The translations under genes were made by a program, and so were the position numbers. 64,000 bases of DNA, taken from assembly GCA_902788485.1 (NCBI GenBank), contig CADAKI010000002.1, positions 25,205 through 89,204 of the forward strand. The letters run 5' to 3'. Below are positions 4,366 to 56,347 of the stretch, one piece after another. The notes below the pieces were generated by a model. That model saw only the letters and a list, made by a program, of their open reading frames with translations. It ran no database searches and was not told the origin of the DNA. Position 1 is the first letter of the stretch; the number at the start of each line of letters is the position of its first letter. The stretch comes from an uncultured Pseudomonadota bacterium. GTDB lineage: Bacteria; Pseudomonadota; Alphaproteobacteria; Rs-D84.

Positions 4366-4433
4366 TATAAAATTTTATACTTGCGTCGCAATTAATATTT
4401 TTTATACGATAATATTACATAAGGAGAAAACTT

Positions 4434-6002: not shown

Positions 6003-6004
6003 AA

Positions 6005-6319
6005 TTATTTGCCGAAAATAAAATCGGGATTTGTACTTAATGCGATAATGGCATCCATGTTGTCATTATCGCTAACTTTTTGGCGAATTGTTTTGCCACA
6101 TTTTTGACATTTATGAATAATAACAAATACCCCGGAATCCTGTTCCACAGATACAGGTTCCATCATACCCCCGCATGTCGATTGTCTGTCACCGGGATTG
6201 TTATCCACATGGCGCGACCACAGGCAATTTGGACAATGATTTGTATATCCATTGCCACGAACAACTGCGCCACAATGGGCGCAGTCAAAATTTTCAACGC
6301 GTTTAATAAACTGTTTCAT
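6005..6319 (-). CDS. RNHCP domain protein
   Basis: Contains the literal RNHCP motif: HCPNCLWSRHVDNNPGDRQSTCGGMMEP plus additional CxxC pairs. Confidence 0.5.
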   Translation of the reverse strand: MKQFIKRVENFDCAHCGAVVRGNGYTNHCPNCLWSRHVDNNPGDRQSTCGGMMEPVSVEQDSGVFVIIHKCQKCGKTIRQKVSDNDNMDAIIALSTNPDFIFGK

Positions 6320-6323
6320 AAAA

Positions 6324-6572
6324 TTAAATACCCAATGCGTCGCGATACATTTTTGTTAATTCATCTGCTTCGTCCAATTCATCTGGGTCTAATTTGCGCA
6401 AACGAATCATCTGGCGGATATATTTTGGATCATATCCGGCAGATTTTGCCTCGGAATAAATTTCTTTGATATCGGCGGCAATATTTGCCGTATCCTCGTT
6501 TAATTTTTCGATTCTTTCGATAATAGATAATAATTGTTGGTTGTCAAATGCACCGTGATTTGCGTTTTTCAT
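6324..6572 (-). CDS. gapR: GapR / DUF2312 (UPF0335) family protein
   Basis: 82 aa. Conserved segments LxxIIERIERLxEE, AADIKEIYxEAKSxGYDxK and IRLRKLD are characteristic of the alphaproteobacterial DUF2312 family. Confidence 0.6.
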   Translation of the reverse strand: MKNANHGAFDNQQLLSIIERIEKLNEDTANIAADIKEIYSEAKSAGYDPKYIRQMIRLRKLDPDELDEADELTKMYRDALGI

Positions 6573-6595
6573 GTTTGTTTTCCCCTTGATTAAAT

Positions 6596-6624
6596 TTGCA
6601 ATAATATAATATATTATTTATGAT
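6596..6624 (+). promoter_or_regulatory. candidate sigma70 promoter TTGCAA-17-TATGAT upstream of pyk
   Basis: Hexamers seen in sequence. The AT-rich context weakens specificity. Confidence 0.3.
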
Positions 6625-6656
6625 AAAAATCAAGAAAAAGCACGGAGAGAGTTTTT

Positions 6657-8024
6657 ATGTACAAATATACCAAAATCATCGCATCGGTTGGACCAAAATC
6701 TGAAAGCCACACGGTTATAACAAAAATGGTGCGTGCGGGTGTAAATTTGTTTCGTATAAATTTCAGTCATGATACTGGTGCTATCCAGGGTAAAAAAATC
6801 GATACGATTCGTGAAGTGGCGCGCGAATTAAAAACTCCGGTTGGGGTGGTCGTTGATTTACAGGGGCCCAAACACAGAATTGGAAATTTTGCCACCGAAG
6901 ATAAATATAAATTGACCGTCGGACAAAGGTTTGTTTTTGATTCTGATGAAACACCTGGTGACAATACGCGTGTGTATTTGCCACATCCAGATGTGATTGC
7001 GTCATTGCATCCCGGCGACCGTATTTTATTGAATGATGGAAAAATCGAAATGCGTGTTGACCGAACCGAACCGACCAAGATAATTGCGACGGTTGTGCGC
7101 GGAAATGAAATTTGGTCACGGCGCGGATTTAATTTGCCGGATACTTTTGTTGATGGTTCTGTGTTGACCGATAAAGACCGTGCTGATTTAGAATATGCTA
7201 TCAAGAAAAAACCGGATTATGTTGCGGTGTCTTTTGTGCAATCTGCGGATGATATTGCATATGTTCGCGATTTCATATCGGCACGCACATCGCATAAAAT
7301 CAAAATTATTGCAAAAATCGAACGTCCACACGCGGTGCATGACATCGATAATATTGTAATGGTGGCCGATGGCATAATGATTGCGCGGGGTGATTTGGCG
7401 GTTGAAATGCCTTTTGAGCAAGTTCCCGCGATTTCGCGTCATATAATTCGTGTGTGTCGTCAAATGAATAAGCCGGTGATTGTCGCAACACAAATGTTGG
7501 CGTCCATGGTGGAATCTGAATTTCCAACCCGTGCCGAAATCAGTGATGTTGCAAATGCGGCATACCTGCGTGCGGATAGTGTTATGACATCCGAAGAAAC
7601 AACAATCGGTATAAATCCTGTGCACACGGTTGAAACGATGTCGCGTATTTTGTCCTATGCCGATATGGATACAATTGCAAATCCATACGATTGGTCGCGT
7701 ATTGATAATGTACCGGAAAATAATTGGTCGCGTTCGGTGGCGTCTATGGCGCATTTGAATAACGCGTCTGCGATTGTTGTATTTGACAGGGACGGTATTG
7801 CCACAACCGAAATATCATGCCGTCGGCCCGACATGCCAATTATCGCGGTGTGCAACGATGAAATAATTGCAAATCAGTTGTGCATAAATCGTGGTGTTTT
7901 TCCAATTTTTGATACCGAAATATTCGGTCGTCGTGATACAGATGCGGCGGTAAAAACATTAAAAATAAAAATAGGTAATGTTGTAATCGTTGACGACGGC
8001 ACAATCAGTTTGCGTGAATTATAA
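6657..8024 (+). CDS. pyk: pyruvate kinase
   Basis: Barrel plus C-terminal domain, FSHG-like INFSHD, MIARGDLAVE, and 455 aa. Confidence 0.9.
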   Translation: MYKYTKIIASVGPKSESHTVITKMVRAGVNLFRINFSHDTGAIQGKKIDTIREVARELKTPVGVVVDLQGPKHRIGNFATEDKYKLTVGQRFVFDSDETPGDNTRVYLPHPDVIASLHPGDRILLNDGKIEMRVDRTEPTKIIATVVRGNEIWSRRGFNLPDTFVDGSVLTDKDRADLEYAIKKKPDYVAVSFVQSADDIAYVRDFISARTSHKIKIIAKIERPHAVHDIDNIVMVADGIMIARGDLAVEMPFEQVPAISRHIIRVCRQMNKPVIVATQMLASMVESEFPTRAEISDVANAAYLRADSVMTSEETTIGINPVHTVETMSRILSYADMDTIANPYDWSRIDNVPENNWSRSVASMAHLNNASAIVVFDRDGIATTEISCRRPDMPIIAVCNDEIIANQLCINRGVFPIFDTEIFGRRDTDAAVKTLKIKIGNVVIVDDGTISLREL

Positions 8025-8067: not shown

Positions 8068-9207
8068 ATGTTAAGAAAATTCCTGTTTGTTTTGCCGATT
8101 TTATTCATGTGTGGTTTTGCACATGCGGCATCATATCGTGCGGCGTTGGTTGCGGATATGGAATCTGGTCGTGTGTTGTATTCTGAAAATGCAAATGTGG
8201 CAAATTATCCGGCGAGTTTAACAAAAATAATGACATTATATTTGACATTTAATGCGCTGGAACACGGGCGGCTTCATTTGGATGATTATTTAATTGTGTC
8301 GAATGCGGCGGCGGCGGCAGAACCTGTAAAACTGGGGTTGCCTGCGGGGTCCAAGATCAAGGTCGAAGATGCGATTAAGGCCGTTGCCGTGCACAGTGCG
8401 AACGATGTTGCGCGCGTGCTGGCAGAAAATTTAAAGGGTGGCAAAGAGGGTAATTTTGCGTCGTTGATGACCCAGGTTGCAACCGAGATTGGTTTATCAA
8501 ATACAAATTTTGAAAATTCGTCGGGACTGCCGGATGATGACCATTTATCAACCGCGCGCGATATTGCATTACTGTCGGTGGCGGTATATAAACATTTTCC
8601 ACAATATTGGAAATATTTCGGAATAAAAAGTTGGACTTACAACGGTCAAACATACACAAATGGAAATCGACTGCTTTCGTCTTATCCGGGGTGCGATGGT
8701 ATGAAAACCGGGTTCACAAACAAATCAAAATATTCACTTGTTGCAACGGCGTCGCGCGACGGTCGGCATTTGATTGCGGTTGTGTTGGGTGCGGATAATA
8801 AAGATGTCCGCGCATCTGTCGCAACCAGTTTGTTGAACCGTGGTTTTAAAATGTTGGAAAATGGCACAGAACCGGTGGTATTAAACACGGCATCCGCGTC
8901 GGGTCAACAATATAACACCACGCCAATCAACGAAAACAATCCATTGGCGAAATACACAATAAATCAAAACAAAAATAATAATTTAACACCCGGTGCGTCT
9001 GGTGTTCAATTTGGTGCGTTTTCATCGCGTGACGCCGCCGCGCGCCAGGTTAAAAACGTCGAACAATCGTTGGGTGTGCATGCAACGATTGAACCGGCGT
9101 CTGGCGGATTGTTCCGTGTGCGTGTAAACAATATTTCTGAAACCTCGGCACAAAGTTTGCGTAATTCTGCGACCGCCGCCGGAATTGACAGTTATGTATT
9201 TCATTAA
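8068..9207 (+). CDS. D-alanyl-D-alanine carboxypeptidase (PBP5/6 class) with C-terminal SPOR domain
   Basis: Signal peptide; SxxK (ASLTK), SxN (SAND) and KTG (KTGFT) motifs. The C-terminal ~70 aa (GVQFGAFSSRD...FRVRVNN) resembles a SPOR peptidoglycan-binding repeat. Confidence 0.8.
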   Translation: MLRKFLFVLPILFMCGFAHAASYRAALVADMESGRVLYSENANVANYPASLTKIMTLYLTFNALEHGRLHLDDYLIVSNAAAAAEPVKLGLPAGSKIKVEDAIKAVAVHSANDVARVLAENLKGGKEGNFASLMTQVATEIGLSNTNFENSSGLPDDDHLSTARDIALLSVAVYKHFPQYWKYFGIKSWTYNGQTYTNGNRLLSSYPGCDGMKTGFTNKSKYSLVATASRDGRHLIAVVLGADNKDVRASVATSLLNRGFKMLENGTEPVVLNTASASGQQYNTTPINENNPLAKYTINQNKNNNLTPGASGVQFGAFSSRDAAARQVKNVEQSLGVHATIEPASGGLFRVRVNNISETSAQSLRNSATAAGIDSYVFH

Positions 9208-12677: not shown

Positions 12678-13364
12678 ATGATGTATCCTGACGATTTTAA
12701 CACACCGGCATTTCCGTCCGGCAAATATGTTGCCATATCTCGGTTTATGGCGGTGTCTGTGATGGTTTTGTTTTTTTTAATTGTGTGTGTGTGCGGGGTT
12801 ATATTGTGGGTAAAAAACACCCAGAGTACCAGTCCTTTTTTAATATCAATAACGCCGGGTGGTGAACGTTGGACATTGGTCAGTCATGAAAACCATACAA
12901 AACAATTACCGGTATATTTTGTATTGCAAGAATCTGTGGTAAATAATTTTGCGCGTCAATGGTTTACGATTTCTGATAATATTTTGGAAAATACCGCCAC
13001 TTGGTCGGATGGATGTTCGCGCGATTCGGATGAATGTAAAATCGGTGGCACAAACACATGCGCAATTTTTTGTGACGCAGATGATAATGTATTCAATAAT
13101 TTTAAAAAACATGTTTTACCGGTTTATGAAGATATGGAAACGAATGAATCTGCTGTATGGCGTGTAACGTCGGTTCGGGCGCGTCCGGTTGATGTTCGTG
13201 CAATATCGAAAAATGGTGGCACATGGCGATTGACTGTTCATGTTGATACCGGTGGCGTGGATACGGTGTTTTTCGGTTTTGCGCGTGTCGGATATAATTC
13301 AATCGAATATCCAAAAACAATGGGGTATTATATTTCAGATTTTAACATGTTCAGGATGAATTGA
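12678..13364 (+). CDS. membrane-anchored periplasmic protein, VirB8-like (NTF2-like) candidate paralogue
   Basis: Short cytoplasmic N-terminus, single TM (AVSVMVLFFLIVCVCGVILWV), ~180 aa periplasmic domain. Weak local similarity to the VirB8 at 32698-33420 (QESVVNNFARQWFTISD). Confidence 0.4.
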   Translation: MMYPDDFNTPAFPSGKYVAISRFMAVSVMVLFFLIVCVCGVILWVKNTQSTSPFLISITPGGERWTLVSHENHTKQLPVYFVLQESVVNNFARQWFTISDNILENTATWSDGCSRDSDECKIGGTNTCAIFCDADDNVFNNFKKHVLPVYEDMETNESAVWRVTSVRARPVDVRAISKNGGTWRLTVHVDTGGVDTVFFGFARVGYNSIEYPKTMGYYISDFNMFRMN

Positions 13365-14014
13365 TGAATAAAGTAAAATATATCTTGATTGGATTTTGCA
13401 TGTTGGTCGTAATGTTGGGACTGGTGTTTTTCACGGGTGCAATTTATGACGCAGAAAACAAAAATAAAATCGAAACATATTTTTTTGAACCGAACAATAA
13501 ATCGTCGGACCGTATCAGTATTCCATTATCGCCTGATAACATGACGCAAAATGCATTGCGCGAAAAAATTGTGGAACATTTTTTATATGAATATTTTTAT
13601 GTTATACCTGATGAAAATAACGCCCGCATGCGCACGATGGATTTTCGCAACACCGACGGTACCCCAACACCGTTGGGTGCGATTGTGCGCGAACGTGCCC
13701 GCACACAATGGGCAACAAATGTCGGACCCGATATTATGGATTTGGCAACAAAACACGGGATGCGCACGGTGGAATTGTTGGGAATATCTGAATCGGAAAG
13801 TGGTCATTTGGTTGTCGATTATAAATTAAAAACTTGGAATCAATCAAATGATGTGTTGGCTCGTCCGATTGAAACAACGGGACGTTTGTTGTTGTATATA
13901 GAAAACAAACCAATCACTGTAAAACAAACCCAAGAAACATTGGATTATTTACAACGTGGTGTGGACCCTGTATCTGCATTTGATTTTTATATACATGATG
14001 TAATACAAGAATAG
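13361..14014 (+). CDS. VirB8-like protein (bitopic, periplasmic NTF2-like domain)
   Basis: N-terminal TM, then LREKIVEHFLYEYFYVIPDEN...GHLVVDYKLKTW. This aligns with QFIREYVRERNEIVPD...GRLSVVNDVN of the VirB8 at 32698-33420. Coupled by a 4-nt overlap to the preceding ORF. Confidence 0.5.
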   Translation: MMNKVKYILIGFCMLVVMLGLVFFTGAIYDAENKNKIETYFFEPNNKSSDRISIPLSPDNMTQNALREKIVEHFLYEYFYVIPDENNARMRTMDFRNTDGTPTPLGAIVRERARTQWATNVGPDIMDLATKHGMRTVELLGISESESGHLVVDYKLKTWNQSNDVLARPIETTGRLLLYIENKPITVKQTQETLDYLQRGVDPVSAFDFYIHDVIQE

Positions 14015-14024
14015 GAAAAATAAA

Positions 14025-14879
14025 ATGTTATTAAAACATATATTATTTTTGTGTTTGTTGACGTTGCCGATGTATGTTGGTACGGCGCGTGCGGCGGATG
14101 ATGGTTTTGAATTTATGGATGATGCATATTCGGGTTATGACGATGGTGCGGATGCATTTATGGATTCGAATAATACGGACATCACATATTCTGATTCTGG
14201 TGATGACAATGAATTTATCACAGATTCTGGGAATACAACATTGAACGATGGTGCGTCATTGATAAATGTGGCGAATTTTGATATTGCGGGTATCATGTTG
14301 GGCATGAATTTCGAAGATGTATATAACCTGTATCATGAACACAATAATTTATATGCACCACGCAAACGCAACAGTTTGGTTTACACCATCCCGACCGATT
14401 GGAAATATAATTTGGATTACGAATGTCGGCAATCGGGTGTTGTTCAACCGAACAAGTTGGAAAAATGTATACGCAGTTTGGCGCAAAATCGCGGATTGTT
14501 GTATGTATCGGAAATTCATTTGGAACGTGTCAAAACTGGTGAAAAAATCGATGTGTTTTTAACCAGTAATGCCACCGACAATGTTGTGTATCGTATTGTA
14601 TACAGTAATGATGTCGAAAAATTAGAAGGTAATAATCCAAAATTTGCTGACCAACGCGATAAACGGCGTTTGGCATTTTGGAAAAATGTTGTGGCAAAAT
14701 ATGGCACGCCAAATTCTGGGGTGGACACATGGATAACATCGACCAATTCATACGACCCGAAAATGACGGCATATTATGATTCGTTGGATTTAATGAACCT
14801 TGGGCAACAGGCAACCGACATCGCGGCGGCGGCCGAACAATCGCGTGAAAATTTCCGTGCGAAACCATATGCTTTTTAA
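14025..14879 (+). CDS. secreted hypothetical protein with Asp-rich N-terminal region
   Basis: Signal peptide MLLKHILFLCLLTLPMYVGTARA followed by an acidic low-complexity region and then a beta-rich domain. Co-directional with the VirB7/VirB8-like genes. Confidence 0.5.
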   Translation: MLLKHILFLCLLTLPMYVGTARAADDGFEFMDDAYSGYDDGADAFMDSNNTDITYSDSGDDNEFITDSGNTTLNDGASLINVANFDIAGIMLGMNFEDVYNLYHEHNNLYAPRKRNSLVYTIPTDWKYNLDYECRQSGVVQPNKLEKCIRSLAQNRGLLYVSEIHLERVKTGEKIDVFLTSNATDNVVYRIVYSNDVEKLEGNNPKFADQRDKRRLAFWKNVVAKYGTPNSGVDTWITSTNSYDPKMTAYYDSLDLMNLGQQATDIAAAAEQSRENFRAKPYAF

Positions 14880-27000: not shown

Positions 27001-27735
27001 ATGCGTAAATATGCGTTTATAATTTTGTGTTTGATGTTGGTATCGGCATGTGATAAACACGACCCGATTTTACCTGGGGTTCGTACAGAAATATTTAATA
27101 CATCAACCATGAAAATATTAAATGTGCCGGTTGAAAATTTACCTGATGCGGTATCTCCGCGCGATGCAATTGATTGCAAATACACAATCGATGCGAATAA
27201 CATTGTGCGTGATGATGCCGGACATAAAATTTTTGTTGGTTTTCCATCCCCAAATTCGGTTGATATTGAAACCAAACCATTATGCAATGGTGGATATGTT
27301 TACGCCGGATTAAATACCGGTAATGTTGTAAAAATTGCGCCGAAAAATCGCAATATCGTATGGATGACGGATGTGTTTGCAGAAAACAATATGACGGGCG
27401 GGGCGACAACGGTTGATATTGTTGCACCATTGGTGATTGATGGTGCGTATGTTTTTGCCGCTGGTATGGGTGACGCATTTTGTAAAATAAATGTGTCCAA
27501 TGGTAATAAAAAGTGGTGTACCCAAATTGGGACGCGTTTTCCATTTGTTGTTTTACCAAATGTTGCATATATAATGGGCATGGATGATATTTTATATGCG
27601 GTGCGGACATCGGACGGTGCAATATATTGGCATACTGATGTAATAAATAAACCGGGTGCGCCAACATACGAAAACAAAATTATTCATGTTGGAAAAAAAC
27701 AATTTAATGCCACAACGGGCGAAGAAATTAAATAA
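27001..27735 (+). CDS. bamB: BamB-like PQQ-repeat lipoprotein (reduced, 244 aa)
   Basis: Lipobox LVSAC and PQQ-like beta-propeller repeats (GYVYAGLNTGNVVKI, DGAYVFAAG, DDILYAVRTSDGAIYW). It is only about 60% of canonical BamB length. Confidence 0.5.
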   Translation: MRKYAFIILCLMLVSACDKHDPILPGVRTEIFNTSTMKILNVPVENLPDAVSPRDAIDCKYTIDANNIVRDDAGHKIFVGFPSPNSVDIETKPLCNGGYVYAGLNTGNVVKIAPKNRNIVWMTDVFAENNMTGGATTVDIVAPLVIDGAYVFAAGMGDAFCKINVSNGNKKWCTQIGTRFPFVVLPNVAYIMGMDDILYAVRTSDGAIYWHTDVINKPGAPTYENKIIHVGKKQFNATTGEEIK

Positions 27736-28121
27736 AAAAATCTGACATTTTTGTCAGATTTTTTTAAATATCGAAATAAAGCGTCTGGCGTTTGAATCCA
27801 AAATTTTTTAATTCCTAATGTGTGTTTTGCATAGTTTACACATGTCCACGCATTCGGGTTAAAATGCATATCCGGTGGTGATTTCAAATAAATAAAATAC
27901 CATCCATACCGCGCCAGTTGCGAAATTCCACGCATTGTTATTGCAATGTGTGCAACATTACCGCGCCTAACAAATTGGTGTATTATAAAATTATTTTTAC
28001 TTGGCACGATAATTGCACAGTGCTTGAACTTGCCACAAAATATTCGTGCCAAAATCATATTCGTTTTACACGAAAAACCAACGATAATCATTGAATAAAT
28101 CCTTTTAATCAATCCATCCAT
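27684..28121 (-). CDS. YiiX/YaeF-like (DUF830) permuted papain-fold hydrolase, probable lipoprotein
   Basis: FKHCAIIV resembles the YSHVGIVV His motif, and TCVNYAKHTLG resembles the YCSELVWLAYQHAG Cys motif of E. coli YiiX. The His-then-Cys order is typical of the permuted NlpC/P60 clade. N-terminus MDGLIKRIYSMIIVGFSC is lipoprotein-like. Overlaps bamB's 3' end convergently by 52 nt. Confidence 0.4.
   Translation of the reverse strand: MDGLIKRIYSMIIVGFSCKTNMILARIFCGKFKHCAIIVPSKNNFIIHQFVRRGNVAHIAITMRGISQLARYGWYFIYLKSPPDMHFNPNAWTCVNYAKHTLGIKKFWIQTPDALFRYLKKSDKNVRFFYLISSPVVALNCFFPT
27740..27766. terminator. bidirectional rho-independent terminator (ATCTGACA-tttt-TGTCAGAT flanked by A7/T7)
   Basis: Perfect 8-bp stem with T-runs on both strands. 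Confidence 0.55.
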
Positions 28122-28449
28122 TTTTGCGTGCAGTGTTTTCTATTATTTCCATGGCGCCACCCCATAAATACGCATCGTGATTTTCCGACCATATATATTG
28201 GTGTGGTGCGCGTCGCCGGTCGCCATATTTTTTCATAACCCGTAATTGTTCATCGGTCAACCGTCCCGCCAAATACAGTTTTGTAATCATTGTTTCCACA
28301 TCCAACAATTCGCACACACGACGCGTCCCCGCCTGATGATTTTGTGTAATGCCCGTTTGCACAGATTTTGAATAAATAAACCAAAACCACATCTGTTCTG
28401 CATTGTGAAATTTTTCCAAATTATCATTGATGTTTTTTACAGTATTCAT
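28105..28449 (-). CDS. hypothetical protein (114 aa), operonic partner of the YiiX-like gene
   Basis: 17-nt overlap with the downstream gene. No recognisable motifs beyond a possible helix-turn-helix-like segment. Confidence 0.4.
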   Translation of the reverse strand: MNTVKNINDNLEKFHNAEQMWFWFIYSKSVQTGITQNHQAGTRRVCELLDVETMITKLYLAGRLTDEQLRVMKKYGDRRRAPHQYIWSENHDAYLWGGAMEIIENTARKNGWID

Positions 28450-28613: not shown

Positions 28614-28654
28614 TTAATAAAAAAACACACATCTTTCGATGTGTGTTTTTCATT
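28614..28654 (-). terminator. rho-independent terminator of the virB8-B9-B10 operon (AACACACATC-tttc-GATGTGTGTT + T-run on the minus strand)
   Basis: Perfect 10-bp stem. On the minus strand a T7 tract follows it. It sits 25 nt after the virB10 stop. Confidence 0.65.
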
Positions 28655-28678: not shown

Positions 28679-31108
28679 TCAATTAACCTCGAACGGTGGG
28701 AAACAATCGCCACTGCCCGCCGGGCAACACGCAAATGGGTATTCCGAATCAGGTCCCATTTCCGTATATGTTTCGCCTGTACAGCATCCATTTGCATCGG
28801 GGGCCGTGCCATCTTCGCACAATAATGTGCCAACCGCATTTGTGCCCGCCGCCGGTTTTGGCTGATTAAATGGATTTATGATATTGTCATTTTCATCATA
28901 TTTTAATCCCAAAACCTGTTCATTATACGCCTTGGTTTGTTCTTCTGTTCGATTATCGGTGGTTCCGTATGTGTTTTGGAATGCCTGTTGTTGACTGTTA
29001 TAATATGCATCCTGTTTTGCCATATTAATTGCGGTATAATTTTTGGCCTGACAATACGCCAACACCGTTCTGTAATCGTATCCTGCGTTTGAAATTTCCA
29101 ACGCTTTATTTGAATCTGCGGTCCATACCCCTTTGGAATCTTGGGTGCAATATGGATCCAGGTTAAACGCACGAACTTGTCCAATCCATGAAGAATCTGT
29201 TTTATCAACAGTCATTTTATTTTTTACATCTTTCCACTCGCGCCGTTGTTGTTCGCTGTATTTTTCAAAAGCACATTTTTTGCCCGCATTTGGCCCTTTA
29301 GGGTCGCCACATGTTGCGATTAAATCAACAGGTGAATAAACGGTAATACGTGTTCCGGCGGCAATCGAAAATGGCGGCACGGTATTATCCAATGCATCAA
29401 CCATCAATTTTTGCGCAACCTTGTTCCATGCGGAAATAACCTCGTTCTTGGCCAATTCAGACGACCGCACAGTTCCCGATTGCACAACCGTGTTATTGTC
29501 CAAATCAATTTGATTTACAAATGTATCGGCAATTGGCGCAATCATATTTACCGCCGCCGGAATCACCGCCGTCAACAATGGCATAACCATTTGTTCGATA
29601 TAATCGGTACTGCCGTATCCGGGGACACCGACACGACCCTGGGAATCCGCGGAATACGGATCCTGGTCTTCGTCTTTGAAATTGAATTCGACGCCATCTG
29701 GACGAATAAATTGATACCATTTAATTTCCATACGTCCAATAGATTTATACGGCCCCGGCAAATTACCACGCAAATATCCCAATAATAATGTTCCGGTTGG
29801 AATAATGACCGTGCGTCCATTATCAGAATAAACATTTCTGTCCACCGTTGCACGAACCGGAATACCACTGCCGCCCTTGCAGTTACCGTCGTTATCGCAA
29901 TCATACACGGATGGGTCGGCACGAACCTCGGATACAATGGTTGCCGGAATTGGTTTGAATTGACGTAATATAAATGTGCGGTCGTACGGCATACTGGAAT
30001 ATACAGATTCCCCACCGCTTGCGGACCCTTTTAAAGATTCTGTATTTACTGTATTTGCCACAAAATTCATACCACTTTCATTTGGTTTCATTGTCTTTTT
30101 CAAATTATTCATCCCTTTGGGGGTGTATCCATCGCTTGCCGCCGGGCGCGTTGAAACACCGGTCGATTTTGAACGCAGGTTTGGCACCACATTTGTCGAT
30201 GTTGTGCGATGATCGGCATCGGTTCCAATCTTTGTCCGGCCGTCGATACTTGTAATAATGCCGGTATCCGGATTATAAACACCGGTTGGATTATTGCATT
30301 CCGTATCAGAAAACGGATGAAATTCATATCGACCCGATTTCGGTTTTATCCAACCAATTTGCACACCCGACATATTATATCCAGGCATCGCAAAATCAGA
30401 ACATTTTTCCGGTGCGCGCCGACGTGGTGCGGGGGCAGGTGTGGGTAAATTGTCTTCGAAAATATTTTTTTCGCCACCAACAATCGGTTCGGGCGTATCA
30501 AAATAATCGTCATCGTTAAAATCGTTATCATCGGCAACAATGTCGTCTTCAACAGGCGAGGGTGCAGGTTCCGGTTTCGATTCTGTTTTTTGTTTTTGGA
30601 TGTTGCCTGTGGCACTGACCGGGATAACAATTTTTGATGTTTGTAAATTTGTATCGCGCGAATCGTTTTTATCAAACCATTCAATCAACAATGTGACATC
30701 GCCCGCCACGTCCGTCGTGCCCGGGGTGAACGTCACATCCACAGAACACGGAATATCTTTATTTACCGGTTGATTCGTGCATCCCGCGGTATTCGCCGAA
30801 AATCCCGGTATAGAATTTTCCACACTGACCGAATCAACAATTGCATCATGGGTTGCATTTATACGAAAAACCTGGGTGCGTTTTGTCCCGATTTTAGTAT
30901 TTAAAAAATCTACATTGTTTGGTGTGACAGTCAATGTGATATCATACCCCGTATCCACAACCGGCGTCGGATTCTTGTTCGACCGCCCAATCAATAACAC
31001 CAACAATATCAACACAACAACAAATGCCGCAATCATCAACAGCCAACGAACCGCGGTTGGTGTCGTATCCAATGTTGATTTTATTTTATCTCTCATCGTA
31101 TTTGCCAT
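28679..31108 (-). CDS. virB10: VirB10/TrbI-family T4SS protein with N-terminal beta-rich domain, Pro-rich linker and ~200 aa Cys-rich C-terminal extension
   Basis: Cytoplasmic N-terminus plus TM (LLMIAAFVVVLILLVLLI). Pro-rich segment PEPAPSPV...PTPAPAP. Conserved VirB10 C-terminal barrel motifs (RTVIIPTGTLLLGYLRGNL; ...TRITVYSPVDL). The 809-aa length is about twice that of canonical VirB10. Confidence 0.7.
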   Translation of the reverse strand: MANTMRDKIKSTLDTTPTAVRWLLMIAAFVVVLILLVLLIGRSNKNPTPVVDTGYDITLTVTPNNVDFLNTKIGTKRTQVFRINATHDAIVDSVSVENSIPGFSANTAGCTNQPVNKDIPCSVDVTFTPGTTDVAGDVTLLIEWFDKNDSRDTNLQTSKIVIPVSATGNIQKQKTESKPEPAPSPVEDDIVADDNDFNDDDYFDTPEPIVGGEKNIFEDNLPTPAPAPRRRAPEKCSDFAMPGYNMSGVQIGWIKPKSGRYEFHPFSDTECNNPTGVYNPDTGIITSIDGRTKIGTDADHRTTSTNVVPNLRSKSTGVSTRPAASDGYTPKGMNNLKKTMKPNESGMNFVANTVNTESLKGSASGGESVYSSMPYDRTFILRQFKPIPATIVSEVRADPSVYDCDNDGNCKGGSGIPVRATVDRNVYSDNGRTVIIPTGTLLLGYLRGNLPGPYKSIGRMEIKWYQFIRPDGVEFNFKDEDQDPYSADSQGRVGVPGYGSTDYIEQMVMPLLTAVIPAAVNMIAPIADTFVNQIDLDNNTVVQSGTVRSSELAKNEVISAWNKVAQKLMVDALDNTVPPFSIAAGTRITVYSPVDLIATCGDPKGPNAGKKCAFEKYSEQQRREWKDVKNKMTVDKTDSSWIGQVRAFNLDPYCTQDSKGVWTADSNKALEISNAGYDYRTVLAYCQAKNYTAINMAKQDAYYNSQQQAFQNTYGTTDNRTEEQTKAYNEQVLGLKYDENDNIINPFNQPKPAAGTNAVGTLLCEDGTAPDANGCCTGETYTEMGPDSEYPFACCPAGSGDCFPPFEVN

Positions 31109-31137
31109 AATTATCTATCCATTTTTTTGTGATAAAA

Positions 31138-32673
31138 TTATTGGATTCTGACCACACGACATCCCGAAACCTGGAATTTCATCAGTTTATCACATAATGT
31201 TTGTGCCTCGTCGATATCCGCCAATGGACCAATGCGCAAACGATACATAGTTGCCGACGATACACCCGAACCCAAATCGCCCACACCTTCGGTGTCAATC
31301 GCAAAGAACACTTTGTTTTGATATGGAGTCAAAATTCCGGCACCACCATCGCCACTGAATTTAACCAATAAATCGTTCCAATATTCTTCCAATGCTTTTG
31401 GTGATCTATCAGACGCAAATTCCACCGCCACACCCGATTGATTTGATTTTATCAACGGAATATTTGATTGTGGCAGGTACGAACCGGCGGTATCCCGTGC
31501 GGTTGGAATCATTGTTGTGCCACCCGATGTGGCACCCCCAGACATTGGCACCGCCCCCGGCATATTCATTTGTGCATTACCATATCCCGCCGGCATATAA
31601 GCACCGGTTGCCATTGGATTTTGTACATTTGACATATACATCGGTGTTGCGGTGTAATCCATTGCACCGCCATACATCGCCGACATATCTGCATCATACG
31701 CAATATTATTTAATGATTGCCCAGACATCATGCTTTGCGCAACATTTGCCTCGGCCAACGCCATAACCGACGCGGTATCCGCAATCAAGAACGGCTTTTC
31801 ACGTTTTTTAATACAAACAATGCGTTGACCACTGCGTAAAACCATATCGCCCACGGCCTCGACAATTAATAATCTGCCGTCTTGGCCATCGGTGCGGAAA
31901 CCAACCGGGGATTCGCCACCTTCTATCAACAAAGACACCACAGGACGTTGAGTCATGGCAATAACTTTATCGCCAAAATCAATGTATGTAAATATTTTGT
32001 CGCGCCACACGCGTTCCGGCGCAATTACATAATCGTCCGGGTTTGGAACGAAAATATCCAAATCAAAACGGAATTCAGACGGGTCGATTTTCATCGATTT
32101 TATCCACGCATAATCTTCGCCATCAACACCAATGGTATTGGTGGTTGGTGCCGCTTTGCGGAATATAGAATTCATCCCACCGGATTGGCGTTGTGTGGCA
32201 GGTGTTGCATTTGCAATTGTTGCGCCATTGTCCAAAACAACATCCACCTGGGAATAAGAAATTTCATTTGCATCGACGGTGCCTGGACTGGACAAATAGA
32301 ATATGTATTTATTTCCCGATTGTCCCGTCACAATCATGTTGGTGTCCGATTCTGATGCTTCGATGGGGGTGATGTAAAAAGTACGATCGCCCTGGGTTGC
32401 CTCGATTTGATACAAAGATTGGTCGCCAACAACCGCATCGGCAATTTGTTCGCCATTTGGCAATGTTACCATCGTCACCATACCATTACGCAACTTTAAT
32501 GGCAAAACCGTTCCGGTTGACCACCCCAGTTGTGCATATCCAGGTTTTGTACTGCCGGTGGCCATGTTTGCCGTTGGGTTTTCCCATGCGCGTTGCACCA
32601 CGGCATTTGCGATGTCAACGGACATCAAAAACAAACAAGAAACAATTCCGTTGATTTTCAAAAACTTTAACAT
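31138..32673 (-). CDS. virB9: VirB9/CagX-family T4SS protein fused to a Met/Gly/Tyr-rich linker and a C-terminal SPOR domain
   Basis: Signal peptide. VirB9 N- and C-domain beta-sandwich regions (FYITPIE..., TDGQDGRLLIVEAVGDMVLRSGQRIVCI). A low-complexity region rich in M, G, A and Y. Terminal ~75 aa (…YRLRIGPLADIDEAQTLCDKL…CRVVRIQ) is SPOR-like. Confidence 0.65.
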   Translation of the reverse strand: MLKFLKINGIVSCLFLMSVDIANAVVQRAWENPTANMATGSTKPGYAQLGWSTGTVLPLKLRNGMVTMVTLPNGEQIADAVVGDQSLYQIEATQGDRTFYITPIEASESDTNMIVTGQSGNKYIFYLSSPGTVDANEISYSQVDVVLDNGATIANATPATQRQSGGMNSIFRKAAPTTNTIGVDGEDYAWIKSMKIDPSEFRFDLDIFVPNPDDYVIAPERVWRDKIFTYIDFGDKVIAMTQRPVVSLLIEGGESPVGFRTDGQDGRLLIVEAVGDMVLRSGQRIVCIKKREKPFLIADTASVMALAEANVAQSMMSGQSLNNIAYDADMSAMYGGAMDYTATPMYMSNVQNPMATGAYMPAGYGNAQMNMPGAVPMSGGATSGGTTMIPTARDTAGSYLPQSNIPLIKSNQSGVAVEFASDRSPKALEEYWNDLLVKFSGDGGAGILTPYQNKVFFAIDTEGVGDLGSGVSSATMYRLRIGPLADIDEAQTLCDKLMKFQVSGCRVVRIQ

Positions 32674-32697
32674 ACTTCCTTCCTTTTTATTTTGTTT

Positions 32698-33420
32698 TTA
32701 TAACTCGTCTGCTTGGCGTGTCCAATTCAGTGGGTCATTTTGTTCCAAATCTAAAACATTTCCGGCGGCATCAATAACATTATAATCACTGATGCGAAAA
32801 CCCAATGGGTTTTCCATGCGTTCCGCCCACCGAACCGCATTTCCGGCGTTTGATTCCAATTTTACACGCAATTTATATGGTTTGCGATATTCCATATCCC
32901 CCAGTGGTCCATAATTACACACATATGTAAATGTCACGATATATGTATCTGCATCGCGTGAATTTACATCGTTTACGACCGATAACCGACCCGCCGGATA
33001 TTCAACAGCACAACTGATATCAAATGCCTCGTCCAAATCTTGGCGAATGATGTTCACCATGTCTGTCATAACAAATTTTCCAAAAACCGCATCTGTGGAC
33101 CGGGTTTTGATAACGCCGTCATCGCTGTATGCCCATTTTTCGCGCATTTTAGATACATCGGGCACAATTTCATTTCGTTCACGAACATATTCGCGAATAA
33201 ATTGATGTTTATACGCATCCAGGTTGTCCGTCGGCATCTCGGTCAGTGTCAATTCTTTGTCACGAATATTTTGTGTGGTCAAGAAAAACACCTGGGGACG
33301 ATTTAATGGGAACATTTTATCCAATGTCCAAACCAAAACCCCCAGCACGACCAACGCCGTTGCCATAACCAAGGTCATTAATCTAGATATCAAAACTGGC
33401 GGTTCTATGCGTTCTGGCAC
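32698..33420 (-). CDS. virB8: VirB8-family T4SS protein (GTG start)
   Basis: Bitopic topology with a periplasmic NTF2-like domain. It is the first gene of the B8-B9-B10 operon. A GGGGGAG RBS lies 8 nt before the GTG. Confidence 0.65.
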   Translation of the reverse strand: MPERIEPPVLISRLMTLVMATALVVLGVLVWTLDKMFPLNRPQVFFLTTQNIRDKELTLTEMPTDNLDAYKHQFIREYVRERNEIVPDVSKMREKWAYSDDGVIKTRSTDAVFGKFVMTDMVNIIRQDLDEAFDISCAVEYPAGRLSVVNDVNSRDADTYIVTFTYVCNYGPLGDMEYRKPYKLRVKLESNAGNAVRWAERMENPLGFRISDYNVIDAAGNVLDLEQNDPLNWTRQADEL

Positions 33421-33446
33421 AGGTTTTCTCCCCCTTTTATTAAATG

Positions 33447-33476
33447 ATTGTAGAAAAAATATTTATATATACGCAA
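33447..33476 (-). promoter_or_regulatory. candidate virB operon promoter TTGCGT-18-TACAAT (minus strand)
   Basis: The -35 lies inside the left arm of a 12-bp inverted repeat (ACGCAAGTAAAA, 33471-33482). The -10 is about 26 nt before the GTG. Confidence 0.3.
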
Positions 33477-48418: not shown

Positions 48419-50599
48419 TTATTCGCATGTCACAGAAGTTTTTCTCTTTCCGCGCGAATTTGTGTTATCCCATTCACATGCGCCGGTCAGTATTCTTTGT
48501 GACACCGTGCAATACACCTTGGTAGATGCGATGTCGGTTTGATCGGTCACATTGTTGCATACAGCGTTGATTTCATCATTGCTTGAAACTGTTTCGATAC
48601 TGGCATATGTTCCGGTCACCCATGTTTTCAATGCGTTGGGTGATATCGCGCCAAACACATTTCCATTTACCGACATGCATGTTTTTATTTGTGCATAGCA
48701 TGAATTGATTGCGGTTCTGGATTTTGTGTTATCCGGGTTTGCATCATCGTAATTATTTGATGTCAAACAACTCTGAACATCACCGATACAATCCGTTGCG
48801 TATGCTGTTAACAATTCGTCTTGTTGTGTCTTGATTTGAACCAATGCACGTTGCAAGAAATTTTTGATAACTTCATTGTCGGCTTTGTATTTACCTTTGG
48901 AATCGTATGTGTAATCTTGGCATTGATTTAACACAGACATGCACATACCGTAATCTTTGTTTGTTTTATCATCGTGATATCCGATTTTGTTTTGTAAAAA
49001 TGCAGACATTTTATCAGATGAATCTTTTGCATTTGTCAAACTAACCGTATTGTTTATGTAATTCACCAACGTGATATAATCGTCATTAGACACAGAATAC
49101 CATGGGTTTTTGTCGTTGTCGGTTTCCCATGTGCTGAACAAATTTTCATGTGAATATGTTGAACTGATTGTTGCATTGGTGTCTTCGGTGTTATTGCCCG
49201 GCATACTGCCAACGACGACGGCGCCATTTACAATATATTGACCGGTTGGGTCCAAACATCCTTCGTAATCAGAACCGCATACATAATCATCTTGCATGCA
49301 TGATTCCAACGCACTGACGCAGCCACGCAAATCGTAAGAATTTTTGTTTTGTGCAACCATCAAACGGGCTTTTTTCAAAACTTCCTTGGCATTTGCAACG
49401 GTTTGTGTCATTTGTTGATTTGATTCGGTTAATGCGCGTTCGTATGCCAAACATGCCTTGTCGATTTCCAAATCGTATGAATTTGTCACAACGGCGGCAT
49501 CAACACCTTGGGCGGTGCAGGCATTCAACACAGATGCCTTGCAACGTGCAGTTGCGGTTTTATATAAATTTTCGCCGCGTTGATTTGAAATACTGTTGGT
49601 GTTGTTTGTTGTGGTGGTCATAAATGAACTTAAATCAAAACCAAAATCACCCATATCGAAATTCAATAATCCCGACAAATCGAAATTCATTGCGCCGGTC
49701 GTGTCAGATGTGGTTGCAGTTCCACTTTTTACATCAACAACCATGCGTTTGACTTTGTCCAAACTGGAACGGATTGCGGAATTATCTTTGGCGTTTTTCA
49801 TTGATAATTCGGCCTCGGTCTCGTTAAACAATGTTGTGATTTGGTCCGCAGACAATCCGATGTATTGAATATTGCGTGCAACATCTTGTAATGCTTCGGT
49901 TGCGGCTTCTAATGCAACCTCGGTCTTTTCATAATTTTTCAAATTTTTGGAACATGTGCAACGACCCTGGTTATCATCCAATGCGTCGCAATAATTATCC
50001 ATACATGATGCGTATTGTGCCTGACAATATTCGGTCAAAGCCTTCATCGTGTTCATTTCGTTGGTGGTTTCCGTCGCAGATTCCGGTGTTGCAACCGGTG
50101 TTGCCGCAACATTTGCCGCACGGATTGAACCGCTGCGTGTTGCGATTGATGCGCGTGATGTTGTTCCACGTGATTGAACGGTTGCGTTTGGATTATATAA
50201 TGTTGTTGTTGTATTCAATGTTGTCGCACGTGCCGCCGAACCCGGACGTTGTTGCGAAACCGGTGCGGTTGCGCCTGTTGCGCGACGTGTTGATACAGAT
50301 GTTGTTCTGACGGGTGACGACACATTACGAACCGAAACCCCGCGTGAACGCACCGTGTTTGTACGTGTTGTTGGTACGCGTGATGTTGTTCGCGCCGTCG
50401 TCCGTGCCGTTGTCCGCGGTGTCATGCGCGCGTTTGTTGATTGTGCCATGGAATCATTTTTTTCTTCAATGGCGCCTGTATCGACATCGTTTAATTCAAC
50501 ATCAGAAAATGTCAAATCTTCGTCGTAATATACCGGTGCAACCTCAGCAAATGCGGGTAAAACCAACAAACTGCCAATCACAACAAACAATCTTTTCAT
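48419..50599 (-). CDS. large secreted Cys-rich protein with Thr/Arg/Ser-rich repetitive N-terminal region
   Basis: Signal peptide MKRLFVVIGSLLVLPAFA. Low-complexity RTTARTTARTTSR... segment (~150 aa). About 30 Cys, mostly in pairs 6-10 residues apart. A central coiled-coil-like segment. No recognisable catalytic motif. Confidence 0.6.
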   Translation of the reverse strand: MKRLFVVIGSLLVLPAFAEVAPVYYDEDLTFSDVELNDVDTGAIEEKNDSMAQSTNARMTPRTTARTTARTTSRVPTTRTNTVRSRGVSVRNVSSPVRTTSVSTRRATGATAPVSQQRPGSAARATTLNTTTTLYNPNATVQSRGTTSRASIATRSGSIRAANVAATPVATPESATETTNEMNTMKALTEYCQAQYASCMDNYCDALDDNQGRCTCSKNLKNYEKTEVALEAATEALQDVARNIQYIGLSADQITTLFNETEAELSMKNAKDNSAIRSSLDKVKRMVVDVKSGTATTSDTTGAMNFDLSGLLNFDMGDFGFDLSSFMTTTTNNTNSISNQRGENLYKTATARCKASVLNACTAQGVDAAVVTNSYDLEIDKACLAYERALTESNQQMTQTVANAKEVLKKARLMVAQNKNSYDLRGCVSALESCMQDDYVCGSDYEGCLDPTGQYIVNGAVVVGSMPGNNTEDTNATISSTYSHENLFSTWETDNDKNPWYSVSNDDYITLVNYINNTVSLTNAKDSSDKMSAFLQNKIGYHDDKTNKDYGMCMSVLNQCQDYTYDSKGKYKADNEVIKNFLQRALVQIKTQQDELLTAYATDCIGDVQSCLTSNNYDDANPDNTKSRTAINSCYAQIKTCMSVNGNVFGAISPNALKTWVTGTYASIETVSSNDEINAVCNNVTDQTDIASTKVYCTVSQRILTGACEWDNTNSRGKRKTSVTCE

Positions 50600-54856: not shown

Positions 54857-56326
54857 ATGAGGAAGGATTTAATCACAATTTTGTTGGGTTTTTGCGCGTC
54901 GGTACCGGCAATGGCCAGTAACGAAGGTGTCCCATCATACTATCAAAAAAATGCAACATCAATGAATCGGGCGGGTTATGGTTCGTACCAAAACCGTGGT
55001 TATCAAAACTATGTCACACCCGGTTCTAAACAGGTCGTGTCGTCCAAAACCACCACGTACCAGGTTCCATCCGCATCTGCGGCAAATGTGTCACGCGGTG
55101 CGACAACAAAAAATGGTATTGCGCGTGCGGCATCGGACGAAAATGGTTTTTCGGTCTATGGTGGATACAGTCGACGTTTTGCGGATTTTGAATTCACAAC
55201 ATCGGTCAATTCTGTTTTGGAATGGGACGATATGCAATTTAATGAATTGACGGCGGGTGCGCGGTATAATTTTTCAATTCGTAATTTCGATATGATGGCA
55301 TTTGGTGAATACACATATGGCAAAATGGCAACGGGCGGTCTGTCCATGGATTACGATTTGCGCCCATATAACGACAGTATTTTGAACGAGGGGATATTTA
55401 CAATTTCTGTTGGTGACCAATCTGGTGATTCGCATCATATGCGTTTTGGAATTGGTGCGCGTAATATTTGGGATATTGGTGGTTGGAAATTGTCGCCGGT
55501 GATTGGTTATGAAATTTTCAAACATAACCTGCAAATGAACGACCATTATTACCCGAACCAGGGCGTATATATCCCATTGATGACCGCCGATGGTTATTAT
55601 GTGTTTGGTAACGCAACCAACGAAACATATTTTCCGGTTGCGCAATCTGATGTCAATGCATACGCGGAAAACGACAATTATTACCAGGTTTGTGTTTCCC
55701 CCGCGGAAATCAAGGTTGCATCGATAAACAGTGCGGGCGGTATTGAAATGAATGATTTGCCGGCACCAACCGACCCGTATTCGACATTGCCATGGGGGGT
55801 ATATTATGACGAATGTGTTGTGATTGGTGGTGATGGTCCAATCATGATTTCGGGAAAAACACATGAATATAACACAACATGGTCTGGATTTTTTGTTGGT
55901 TTGGAAATTGAAAAGCAAATGACATGGAACGATAAATTGCGTTTTTATGGTCAAATCAGTATGCCCAAATATTCGTCCGAGGGTATTTGGCCAAACCGTA
56001 CCGATTGGCAACAGAGCCCCAGTTTCCTTGACGAGGGCGACGGTGGCGCATTGGCATACCAATTAGAAATGGAATATATAATGAAATTGTCTGACCGGTT
56101 GAATTTATCGTTAAAGGCCGACACAAATTATTTCCATATTGGTGAAATTGGTGGTGAAATTTATTGGGCACCATACACCGAATATACATACACCGATAAT
56201 GGCGATGGTACGGTTGATATTATGGCAACAACATATCCGGGCTATACCGAAAGTGTGGCCCAGGCATTAAAAGAGGCCACATGGCGTTCATTCGGGTTGT
56301 ATTTGGGCCTGAAATATTCGTTTTAA
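54857..56326 (+). CDS. outer membrane beta-barrel protein (489 aa)
   Basis: Signal peptide (…VPAMA), Gly/Tyr-rich amphipathic strands and the terminal LGLKYSF aromatic motif. Confidence 0.5.
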   Translation: MRKDLITILLGFCASVPAMASNEGVPSYYQKNATSMNRAGYGSYQNRGYQNYVTPGSKQVVSSKTTTYQVPSASAANVSRGATTKNGIARAASDENGFSVYGGYSRRFADFEFTTSVNSVLEWDDMQFNELTAGARYNFSIRNFDMMAFGEYTYGKMATGGLSMDYDLRPYNDSILNEGIFTISVGDQSGDSHHMRFGIGARNIWDIGGWKLSPVIGYEIFKHNLQMNDHYYPNQGVYIPLMTADGYYVFGNATNETYFPVAQSDVNAYAENDNYYQVCVSPAEIKVASINSAGGIEMNDLPAPTDPYSTLPWGVYYDECVVIGGDGPIMISGKTHEYNTTWSGFFVGLEIEKQMTWNDKLRFYGQISMPKYSSEGIWPNRTDWQQSPSFLDEGDGGALAYQLEMEYIMKLSDRLNLSLKADTNYFHIGEIGGEIYWAPYTEYTYTDNGDGTVDIMATTYPGYTESVAQALKEATWRSFGLYLGLKYSF

Positions 56327-56347
56327 TTTGTAATCGGGGTTTAATGT

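Follow-up and report, generated by a model that had tools for sequence, protein, structure and literature searches.

A clade-wide variant of the VirB8-VirB9-VirB10 core in the alphaproteobacterial order Rs-D84

Introduction

Type IV secretion systems (T4SSs) with a minimal VirB/Tra (MPF-T) core, such as VirB of Agrobacterium tumefaciens, TraN/O/F of pKM101, and TrwH/F/E/G of R388, are close points of comparison for the genes that we describe here. We analyzed a 64,000-nucleotide stretch of DNA, which we will call the window, from an uncultured bacterium of the alphaproteobacterial order Rs-D84 (assembly GCA_902788485.1, contig CADAKI010000002.1, positions 25,205 to 89,204 of the forward strand). 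At positions 28679-33420 of the window, three genes encode proteins of the VirB8, VirB9, and VirB10 families, and the VirB9- and VirB10-like proteins have additional domains. We will refer to these three genes as the triad. The triad is an undescribed, clade-wide variant of T4SS core components that is common in genomes.

Within T4SSs, VirB8 is an inner-membrane assembly factor. In the Rickettsiales, the genes of the rvh system are scattered across loci: virB4, virB6, virB8, and virB9 are duplicated, there is no virB5, and virB8-virB9-virB10-virB11-virD4 form an operon. Helicobacter has a comB6-10 operon, as well as enlarged CagX and CagY proteins. The Dot/Icm system of Legionella has accessory lipoproteins that bind peptidoglycan (DotK and Dis1), and its VirB10 homologue, DotG, has extra regions (PMC9302130).

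The genomes of Rs-D84 bacteria are just 0.75-1.0 Mb and lack respiration, many biosynthetic pathways (including nucleotide biosynthesis), and standard transporters; an obligately symbiotic or parasitic lifestyle has been proposed for these bacteria (PMC12306168). Their genomes have a high coding density, and a build-up of pseudogenes was not reported (PMC12306168).

Results

Three tightly spaced genes of the VirB8, VirB9, and VirB10 families

The triad consists of three open reading frames (ORFs) that lie head to tail: virB8 (32698-33420; 240 amino acids, with a GTG start codon), virB9 (31138-32673; 511 amino acids), and virB10 (28679-31108; 809 amino acids). These genes, and all of their features that we discuss below, are on the minus strand. 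The gaps between the genes are 24 nucleotides (virB8/virB9) and 29 nucleotides (virB9/virB10). The initial annotation, which was made from the sequence alone, had described three co-directional and tightly spaced genes of these families, and both parts of that description stand: all three proteins have matches in Pfam that are above the gathering thresholds.

The VirB8-like protein belongs to the VirB8 family. It is a bitopic protein, with a short cytoplasmic N-terminus, a transmembrane (TM) helix (residues ~10-33), and a periplasmic, NTF2-like VirB8 domain. It scores 25.9 bits against Pfam VirB8 (PF04335), compared to a gathering threshold of 23.2 bits. The profile of the family aligns to solved periplasmic domains of VirB8/TrwG over ~170 residues (32-205; E = 1e-4 to 1e-3), and the best match among solved structures, 4lso, aligns end to end (E = 1e-4).

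We also inspected the ORFs of the operon and its spacers for a VirB7-like lipoprotein and found none, so we rejected the idea that such an ORF is hidden in the spacers.

VirB9 ends in a long linker and a predicted SPOR domain

The VirB9-like protein begins with a signal peptide (residues 1-24, with an A-N-A cleavage motif), followed by the VirB9/CagX core (residues 49-290; 31804-32529). The core matches Pfam CagX (PF03524; E = 4e-21, 76.2 bits vs. a threshold of 34.2). It also matches TIGR02781, for VirB9, with E = 4.8e-14, but the score (52.6 bits) is well below the equivalog cut-off of 217.7 bits, so the protein is a member of the family and not an equivalog. When we compared VirB9 to the sequences in PDB, we did not detect any solved T4SS component.

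After the core comes a low-complexity linker of ~110 amino acids (residues 296-407; 31453-31788), of which 46% are methionine, glycine, alanine, or tyrosine. The length of the linker differs by species, and the VirB9 homologues are 487-534 amino acids long. The remainder of the protein (residues 408-511; 31141-31452) matches Pfam SPOR (PF05036) with 22.9 bits, compared to a threshold of 21 bits, and the aligned part is the C-terminal half of the model only. PF05036 is also among the precomputed matches for 9 of the 120 listed homologues of VirB9. A profile of the SPOR region had zero matches to the sequences in PDB. We then predicted the structure of the last 104 residues with AlphaFold2, using an alignment of 26 sequences. 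The model has a predicted local distance difference test score (pLDDT) of 76 and a predicted template modeling score of 0.65. It has the RNP-like topology beta-alpha-beta-beta-alpha-beta, with an insertion of low confidence between beta2 and beta3. This model shows that the C-terminus of VirB9 is predicted to adopt a SPOR fold. The Met/Gly/Ala/Tyr-rich linker and terminal SPOR-like module of the initial annotation are both present, and the structure prediction that it had proposed as a check agrees with it.

Another protein with a SPOR domain is encoded in the window, namely a D,D-carboxypeptidase (Peptidase_S11; 8068-9207, plus strand) whose C-terminal SPOR domain matches with E = 1.3e-5. This gene has been kept near the triad in two relatives (L001 and L002).

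VirB10 has extra domains on both sides of its barrel

We determined the order of domains in the VirB10-like protein, and its invariant columns, from an alignment of 23 homologues. After a cytoplasmic tail of ~20 amino acids there is a TM helix (residues ~21-42; 30983-31048). This stretch, WLLMIAAFVVVLILLVLLIG, is hydrophobic and includes positions that are invariant across the 23 homologues. The next domain (residues 48-172; 30593-30967) is a predicted immunoglobulin (Ig)-like beta-sandwich with an invariant pair of cysteines (C110/C121). In 17 of 20 diverse members of the family, this domain matches the choice-of-anchor D model of NCBIfam (NF012200; best E = 3e-8). In the window's VirB10, the match (residues 50-134) scores 22-28 bits, which is below the curated cut-off of 45 bits. 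There are faint matches to Pfam ASH in two members, and the best match in PDB by profile comparison, CFAP74, is weak. Together, these profile matches show a probable Ig fold of the ASH/choice-of-anchor D type. The folded, beta-rich domain that had been noticed between the TM helix and the proline-rich linker is real.

The linker itself (residues 173-233; 30410-30592) is rich in proline, aspartate, and glutamate, and varies in both length and sequence. It is followed by a small conserved domain (residues 234-300; 30209-30409) with many invariant columns, including another pair of cysteines (C236/C271). The small domain has no match in Pfam or NCBIfam. A second variable linker then leads to the VirB10/TrbI barrel (residues 375-595; 29324-29986).

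The barrel matches Pfam TrbI/VirB10 (PF03743) across residues 387-592, with E = 5e-15 and 56.3 bits (the threshold is 35 bits). With this barrel, an N-terminal TM helix, and a proline-rich linker, the protein belongs to the VirB10/TrbI family. The NCBIfam models for VirB10 (NF038091; E = 3e-15, 56 bits vs. a cut-off of 220) and ComB10 (NF038092; E = 1e-11, 44.4 bits vs. a cut-off of 300) match below their cut-offs. The barrel is nearly invariant, even though the orthologues are just ~47% identical overall. It holds a hydrophobic helix-loop-helix (approximately residues 500-575) at the position of the antenna, and this is also near-invariant. The best VirB10 from a plasmid is just 27% identical over the barrel, and the profile of the VirB10 family did not match any solved T4SS protein among the sequences in PDB.

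Beyond the barrel lies a C-terminal extension of ~215 amino acids. It has 10 cysteines, all of which are invariant in the 23 homologues. The first part (residues 596-755; 28844-29323) has two pairs of cysteines (600/612 and 654/686) and, in the structural model, forms a helical module that includes a single long helix; the C-terminal end is modeled as a cysteine-rich knot. Both parts are reasonably confident (pLDDT of 77.8 for the extension), and the extension has no neighbor in PDB. The initial annotation had correctly recognized an extension, of ~200 amino acids, but counted 9 cysteines. It also seems to relate the extension to the antenna, which needs correction: the antenna-like helix-loop-helix is intact within the barrel, and the extension comes after the barrel.

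The terminal cysteine module is found in other envelope proteins

The last ~45 amino acids of VirB10 (28682-28843) form a module with six cysteines (C764, C775, C776, C794, C795, and C802) and the pattern C-x-DG-xx-PD-xx-GCC-x-GE-...-CCP-...-G-x-C-F-PP. The six cysteines are invariant in both of our alignments (A1 and A4), and the module is modeled with a pLDDT of 80-92. No family in Pfam corresponds to it.

We searched exhaustively for the extension, with a profile, in 1.84 billion representative proteins. The extension as a whole was matched mainly in VirB10-like proteins of ~800 amino acids. Several shorter matches, in which the extension is likewise C-terminal, have the appearance of fragments. 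The cysteine module also forms the end of bitopic proteins of 680-850 amino acids, which have a cytoplasmic coiled-coil, one TM helix, and a long proline-rich linker. Small secreted proteins also end in 1-3 copies of the module, and one protein of 84 amino acids is a TM helix and the module alone. By contrast, in the window and in each of 83 related loci, there is exactly one copy of the module, at the C-terminus of VirB10. The cysteine module is an undescribed domain that is common to several families of envelope proteins.

The loci that encode these other proteins include L084 (8653-10812), L090 (4166-11106), L093 (5351-10978), and L092. The three small proteins that we looked up (P0283, P0275, and P0326) are all encoded in one conserved operon, which also has genes for a MacB_PCD/FtsX permease and an ABC ATPase and lies downstream of ftsQ and ftsA. 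It could encode an exporter and its cysteine-rich substrates.

The triad is conserved across Rs-D84

At least 283 of the species-representative genomes in GTDB encode a relative. The best 80 of the 283 are from Candidatus Enterousia and from other Alphaproteobacteria of the gut, the rumen, or termites. The genomes with a relative include one closed chromosome (OZ007020.1; 958,618 bp). Because full-length homologues are present in so many species, a chance origin of the ORFs is excluded.

The 120 best matches to VirB10 are 47-99% identical, are 770-845 amino acids long, and are nearly all full length (for three of them, the alignment spans just 71% of the query). Among the 120 best matches to VirB9, identity is 66-93%, and most are ~490-535 amino acids long and full length. 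These matches stem from metagenomes or metagenome-assembled genomes, and the few that have names are called "TrbI/VirB10 family protein" or "TrbG/VirB9 family."

All 83 related loci have the triad in collinear order. virB8 is present in 78 of these, and the other five sequences begin within virB9 or just before it. Median identity of VirB9 across the 83 loci is 67%. Wherever the upstream flank could be read (four loci, one of them from a distant lineage), the triad adjoins secE-nusG-rplKAJL-rpoBC. In 14 loci (for example L002, at 6130-7730; L003; and L027, at 6049-7746), secE and virB8 are separated by a variable cassette of secreted cysteine-rich proteins or repeat proteins; the window lacks this cassette. 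The GC content of the operon is 0.445, compared to 0.422 for the window. We also considered an origin from a mobile element and rejected it on the basis of the synteny, the GC content, and the conservation.

We did not find any paper that describes the fusion of VirB9 and SPOR, or the other fusions. The initial annotation had not recognized the architecture as described. It is not peculiar to one genome, however: it is clade-wide, syntenic, and universal in the order. Equivalent fusions were thus already present in the relatives, which in the letter goes against the initial annotation, although these relatives have just generic names.

Predicted promoter and terminator

A ribosome-binding site, GGGGGAG (33428-33434), precedes the GTG start codon of virB8. 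About 27 nucleotides upstream of the start codon, there is a promoter-like block, TTGCGT-N18-TACAAT (33447-33476). In an alignment of the upstream regions, the window and its three nearest relatives (L004, L005, and L006) share this block, although they differ from one another in the middle of the spacer. A Rho-independent terminator (28619-28650) lies ~30-60 nucleotides past the stop codon of virB10. It comprises a 14-bp hairpin and a run of U (AAAAACACACAUC-GAAA-GAUGUGUGUUUUU, then UU). By direct folding, its free energy is -23.3 kcal/mol, and all of 200 shuffled sequences fold less well (z = -4.65).

We relied on direct folding and on the alignment of upstream regions because a consensus scanner overlooked this terminator; the promoter-like and terminator-like sites that the scanner reports are no more common than in shuffled sequence. 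The strong terminator that the initial annotation placed downstream is borne out by the folding. Its "mapped promoter" is not, as mapping cannot be demonstrated from sequence and only the predicted block was seen.

As had also been noted, virB11, virD4, virB4, and virB6 do not follow the triad. None of these genes is nearby, and virB10 is followed by the terminator and then by two small genes.

Comparison to described systems

Like the minimal VirB/Tra core, the triad encodes the same domains in the canonical gene order, and its VirB10 has an N-terminal TM helix, a proline-rich linker, and a barrel with a helix-loop-helix insert. Unlike in the VirB/Tra core, there is no gene for VirB7, VirB9 has a long linker and a SPOR domain, and VirB10 has the Ig-like domain, the small cysteine-containing domain, and an orphan extension of ~215 amino acids. 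Also, none of virB1-6, virB11, or virD4 is adjacent to the triad.

The triad resembles the rvh genes in that it is VirB-type, chromosomal, and vertically inherited in genome-reduced Alphaproteobacteria, with the order virB8-virB9-virB10 and without a single locus for the whole system. It differs from rvh in what comes after virB10, namely a terminator and two small, unrelated genes instead of virB11 and virD4, and Rs-D84 is a separate order. To our knowledge, fusions to SPOR domains or to cysteine modules have not been reported for rvh.

As in the Helicobacter ComB and Cag systems, the virB8-virB9-virB10 block lies apart from any ATPase genes, the VirB9 and VirB10 homologues are enlarged, and there is a match (below threshold) to ComB10. 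However, the ComB10 score is far below the cut-off, and ComB4 and ComB6 were not seen in the sequence that we inspected. In both CagY and DotG, the expansions are N-terminal to the barrel, while the VirB10 of the triad is also extended C-terminally.

As in Dot/Icm, the core of a T4SS seems to be tied to the cell wall by dedicated peptidoglycan-binding domains, which in our case are predicted (PMC9302130). But the peptidoglycan binders of Dot/Icm are separate, OmpA-like proteins, whereas the SPOR domain of the triad is fused to VirB9. Also, Dot/Icm is a class IVB system with a full set of ATPases. The described SPOR proteins (RlpA, FtsN, DamX, DedD, and CwlC) act in cell division or in remodeling of the cell wall and bind denuded glycan strands, and we are not aware of a report of one that is fused to a ring protein of a secretion system.

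Neighboring genes

The two small genes behind virB10 are also on the minus strand. The first, o114 (28105-28449), encodes a small cytoplasmic protein of 114 amino acids. It is collinear in 81 of the 83 loci, with a median identity of 64%. The second, o145 (27684-28121), encodes a small protein whose true start is probably M11, at 28091. It is present in 78 of the 83 loci, with a median identity of 41% and with C19, H24, and C84 invariant. The gaps in the distribution of o114 and o145 fall mainly at the ends of contigs. Neither protein has a consistent match in Pfam (even in relaxed scans that took in every member of the two families) or by profile comparison to PDB. From the motif, we speculate that o145 might be a permuted papain-like thiol enzyme. 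A Rhodovastum plasmid, in a region that is phage-like, and an Azospirillum chromid encode distant homologues of o114. In the distant lineage L085, we did not see a comparable pair of small ORFs behind the triad, as judged from the gene list and not from a direct search. Given this, and given that the outside relatives of o114 are phage-like, o114 and o145 are probably outside of the machine and are just neighbors.

Elsewhere in the window, three successive ORFs at 12678-14879 (plus strand) encode envelope proteins, namely two bitopic proteins of 228 and 217 amino acids and a secreted protein of 284 amino acids. These have no match in Pfam and no homologues in the 83 loci. We considered the bitopic proteins (12678-14014) as candidate paralogues of VirB8, and rejected them, as there is no support from BLASTP and the probabilities from hhalign are under 2%. 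Another secreted protein, of 726 amino acids (48419-50599, minus strand), has an N-terminal part that is rich in serine, threonine, and arginine, followed by a cysteine-rich part. It has no match in Pfam, and tblastn finds matches in just 3 of the 83 loci.

Adjoining genes at 54857-57379 (plus strand) encode a Protochlamydia-type outer-membrane protein (Pom, E = 2e-10) and an SLT_2 lytic transglycosylase (E = 3e-84). These two envelope genes could matter for assembling a machine that is anchored in the wall. Finally, the relative L084 encodes a prepilin peptidase (Peptidase_A24, 160 amino acids), after which come four unknown genes in the same orientation (3582-7948, minus strand); these genes may represent a pilus locus that has diverged.

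Discussion

A scaffold for a dispersed secretion system?

We give a probability of roughly one half to the explanation that the triad is the scaffold of a dispersed T4SS that exchanges with partner or host cells. The operon would encode the envelope-spanning part (VirB8 and the outer-membrane core of VirB9 and VirB10) of a divergent VirB-type (MPF-T-like) apparatus, and this apparatus would be a chromosomally fixed and vertically inherited signature of Candidatus Enterousia and the order Rs-D84. VirB10 would be anchored in the inner membrane and would span the periplasm via its proline-rich linker, and its barrel and antenna would form, with VirB9, a multimeric channel in the outer membrane. 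Each SPOR domain, at the end of a flexible linker, would pin the ring to the glycan strands of peptidoglycan, and this tether might stand in for the missing VirB7. The Ig-like domain would be located near the inner membrane, while the helical module and the cysteine module would decorate the part of the ring that is close to the outer membrane. The cysteine module would probably bind a ligand in the envelope that is also recognized by the clade's other proteins with this module. The VirB4-type ATPase and the inner-membrane parts would be encoded elsewhere in the genome, in a dispersed layout like that of rvh. The initial annotation had stated such a layout outright; it is better taken as a hypothesis, and VirB4, the protein that defines T4SSs, was not seen in the sequence that we inspected.

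The near-invariant barrel and antenna and the median identity of 67% for VirB9 argue for a functional machine with multiple partners, and the retention of virB8 argues for the existence of an inner-membrane complex. The T4SS of the Rickettsiales is a precedent for genes that are spread over several loci. Contact-dependent exchange would also fit the lifestyle that is predicted for these bacteria, which depends on partners.

Several observations weigh against this explanation. We compared ORFs of at least 150 amino acids from the 64-kb window to Pfam. These take in every likely gene of the window other than the unmistakable nusG, ribosomal-protein, and rpoBC genes, and none of them encodes VirB4, VirB6, VirB11, or VirD4. 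Within 10 kb on either side of the triad in the 83 relatives, there is no unexplained ORF of at least 250 amino acids with a Walker A motif. Six additional loci (L084, L085, L086, L087, L090, and L093), some of which we reached through the proteins with cysteine modules, have no genes for T4SS ATPases or channels. In all, the sequence that we inspected for T4SS parts amounts to about 10-15% of a genome, and VirB3 was not seen in it either. VirB9 and VirB10 have also diverged so far that solved T4SS components are not detectable from their sequences (just the profile of VirB8 succeeds), so their function may have shifted. And the published analysis of Rs-D84 genomes does not mention a T4SS and does not list a secretion system (PMC12306168).

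A possible core without its ATPases

A less likely but serious alternative is that the triad is the entire machine: the ATPases and the inner-membrane channel of an ancestor (with, for example, a virB8-9-10-11-D4 operon) would have been lost, and the VirB8/VirB9/VirB10 scaffold would have been rebuilt as an envelope-spanning, wall-anchored structure that works independently of ATPases, while gaining the SPOR anchor, the Ig-like domain, and the cysteine module. It might serve as an outer-membrane conduit, as a site of adhesion or contact, or as a TonB-like coupler of the inner and outer membranes, for contact with partners or uptake from them. This would explain why the triad is alone among housekeeping genes in every locus that we examined, even for the most distant members of the family, and why a strong terminator closes it. 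This family alone shows the three kinds of domain accretion, and the cysteine module is shared with bitopic proteins whose topology is like that of VirB10 or TonB and with putative substrates of the MacB exporter. Uptake by such a device would also suit bacteria that lack the standard uptake transporters and for which a secretion system is not listed in the published analysis (PMC12306168). However, VirB4 is the sole ubiquitous protein of T4SSs, and clusters without VirB4 are often decaying or pseudogenized (PMC4027160). The strong conservation of the triad fits a working machine, and the kept VirB8 suggests a partner complex in the inner membrane. That no ATPase was seen in such a small share of the genome is little proof of its loss. 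We know of no precedent for a working T4SS-type machine without an ATPase.

A possible role in DNA uptake

It is unlikely that the triad takes up DNA, as ComB8, ComB9, and ComB10 do at the outer part of a ComB system. In this scenario, DNA would be passed on to ComEC and would feed a cell that is auxotrophic for nucleotides. The ComB10 model does fit VirB10 nearly as well as the VirB10 model does (44 vs. 56 bits), and the window encodes a homologue of ComEC/Rec2 (2389-4365, minus strand; Pfam Competence, E = 2e-50), but the ComB10 score of 44.4 bits is far under the cut-off of 300, and non-competent bacteria widely carry ComEC as well. The absence of nucleotide biosynthesis from Rs-D84 would give such cells a use for DNA, and type IV pili were reported for UBA9783 only and not for Rs-D84 (PMC12306168). 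On the other hand, given the prepilin peptidase in L084, there may instead be a pilus-based route, and a ComB system needs ComB4 (a VirB4), ComB6, and ComB2/3, none of which was seen in the sequence that we inspected.

The rejected explanation of a decaying remnant

That the triad is a functionless remnant of the T4SS of a plasmid or an integrated conjugative element, as the presence of just three T4SS genes and the frequent decay of clusters without VirB4 might suggest (PMC4027160), is effectively refuted by conservation: at least 283 species retain undisrupted ORFs of full length in one and the same place on the chromosome, most orthologues are free of frameshifts, the barrel is near-invariant, the GC content matches that of the host genome, no relaxase, integrase, or repeats flank the triad, and the genomes are densely coding with no reported accumulation of pseudogenes (PMC12306168).

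Implications

If the triad works without VirB4, then VirB4 could no longer be regarded as the defining protein of all machines derived from T4SSs, and the triad would be the first core complex of a secretion system that survived and diversified alone in a minimal genome. Under either this explanation or that of a scaffold for a dispersed T4SS, the fusion of VirB9 and SPOR would attach the core to the sacculus in a new manner, with neither VirB7 lipoproteins nor accessory proteins of the OmpA type. And VirB10, with its C-terminal extension, would speak against the idea that the protein stops at its barrel. Candidatus Enterousia and other members of Rs-D84 live in the guts of humans, ruminants, horses, pigs, chickens, and termites with ~850-900 genes, and the route by which they acquire metabolites is not known. 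An elaborate complex that is conserved beside rpoBC is among the few clues as to how they interact with their partners.

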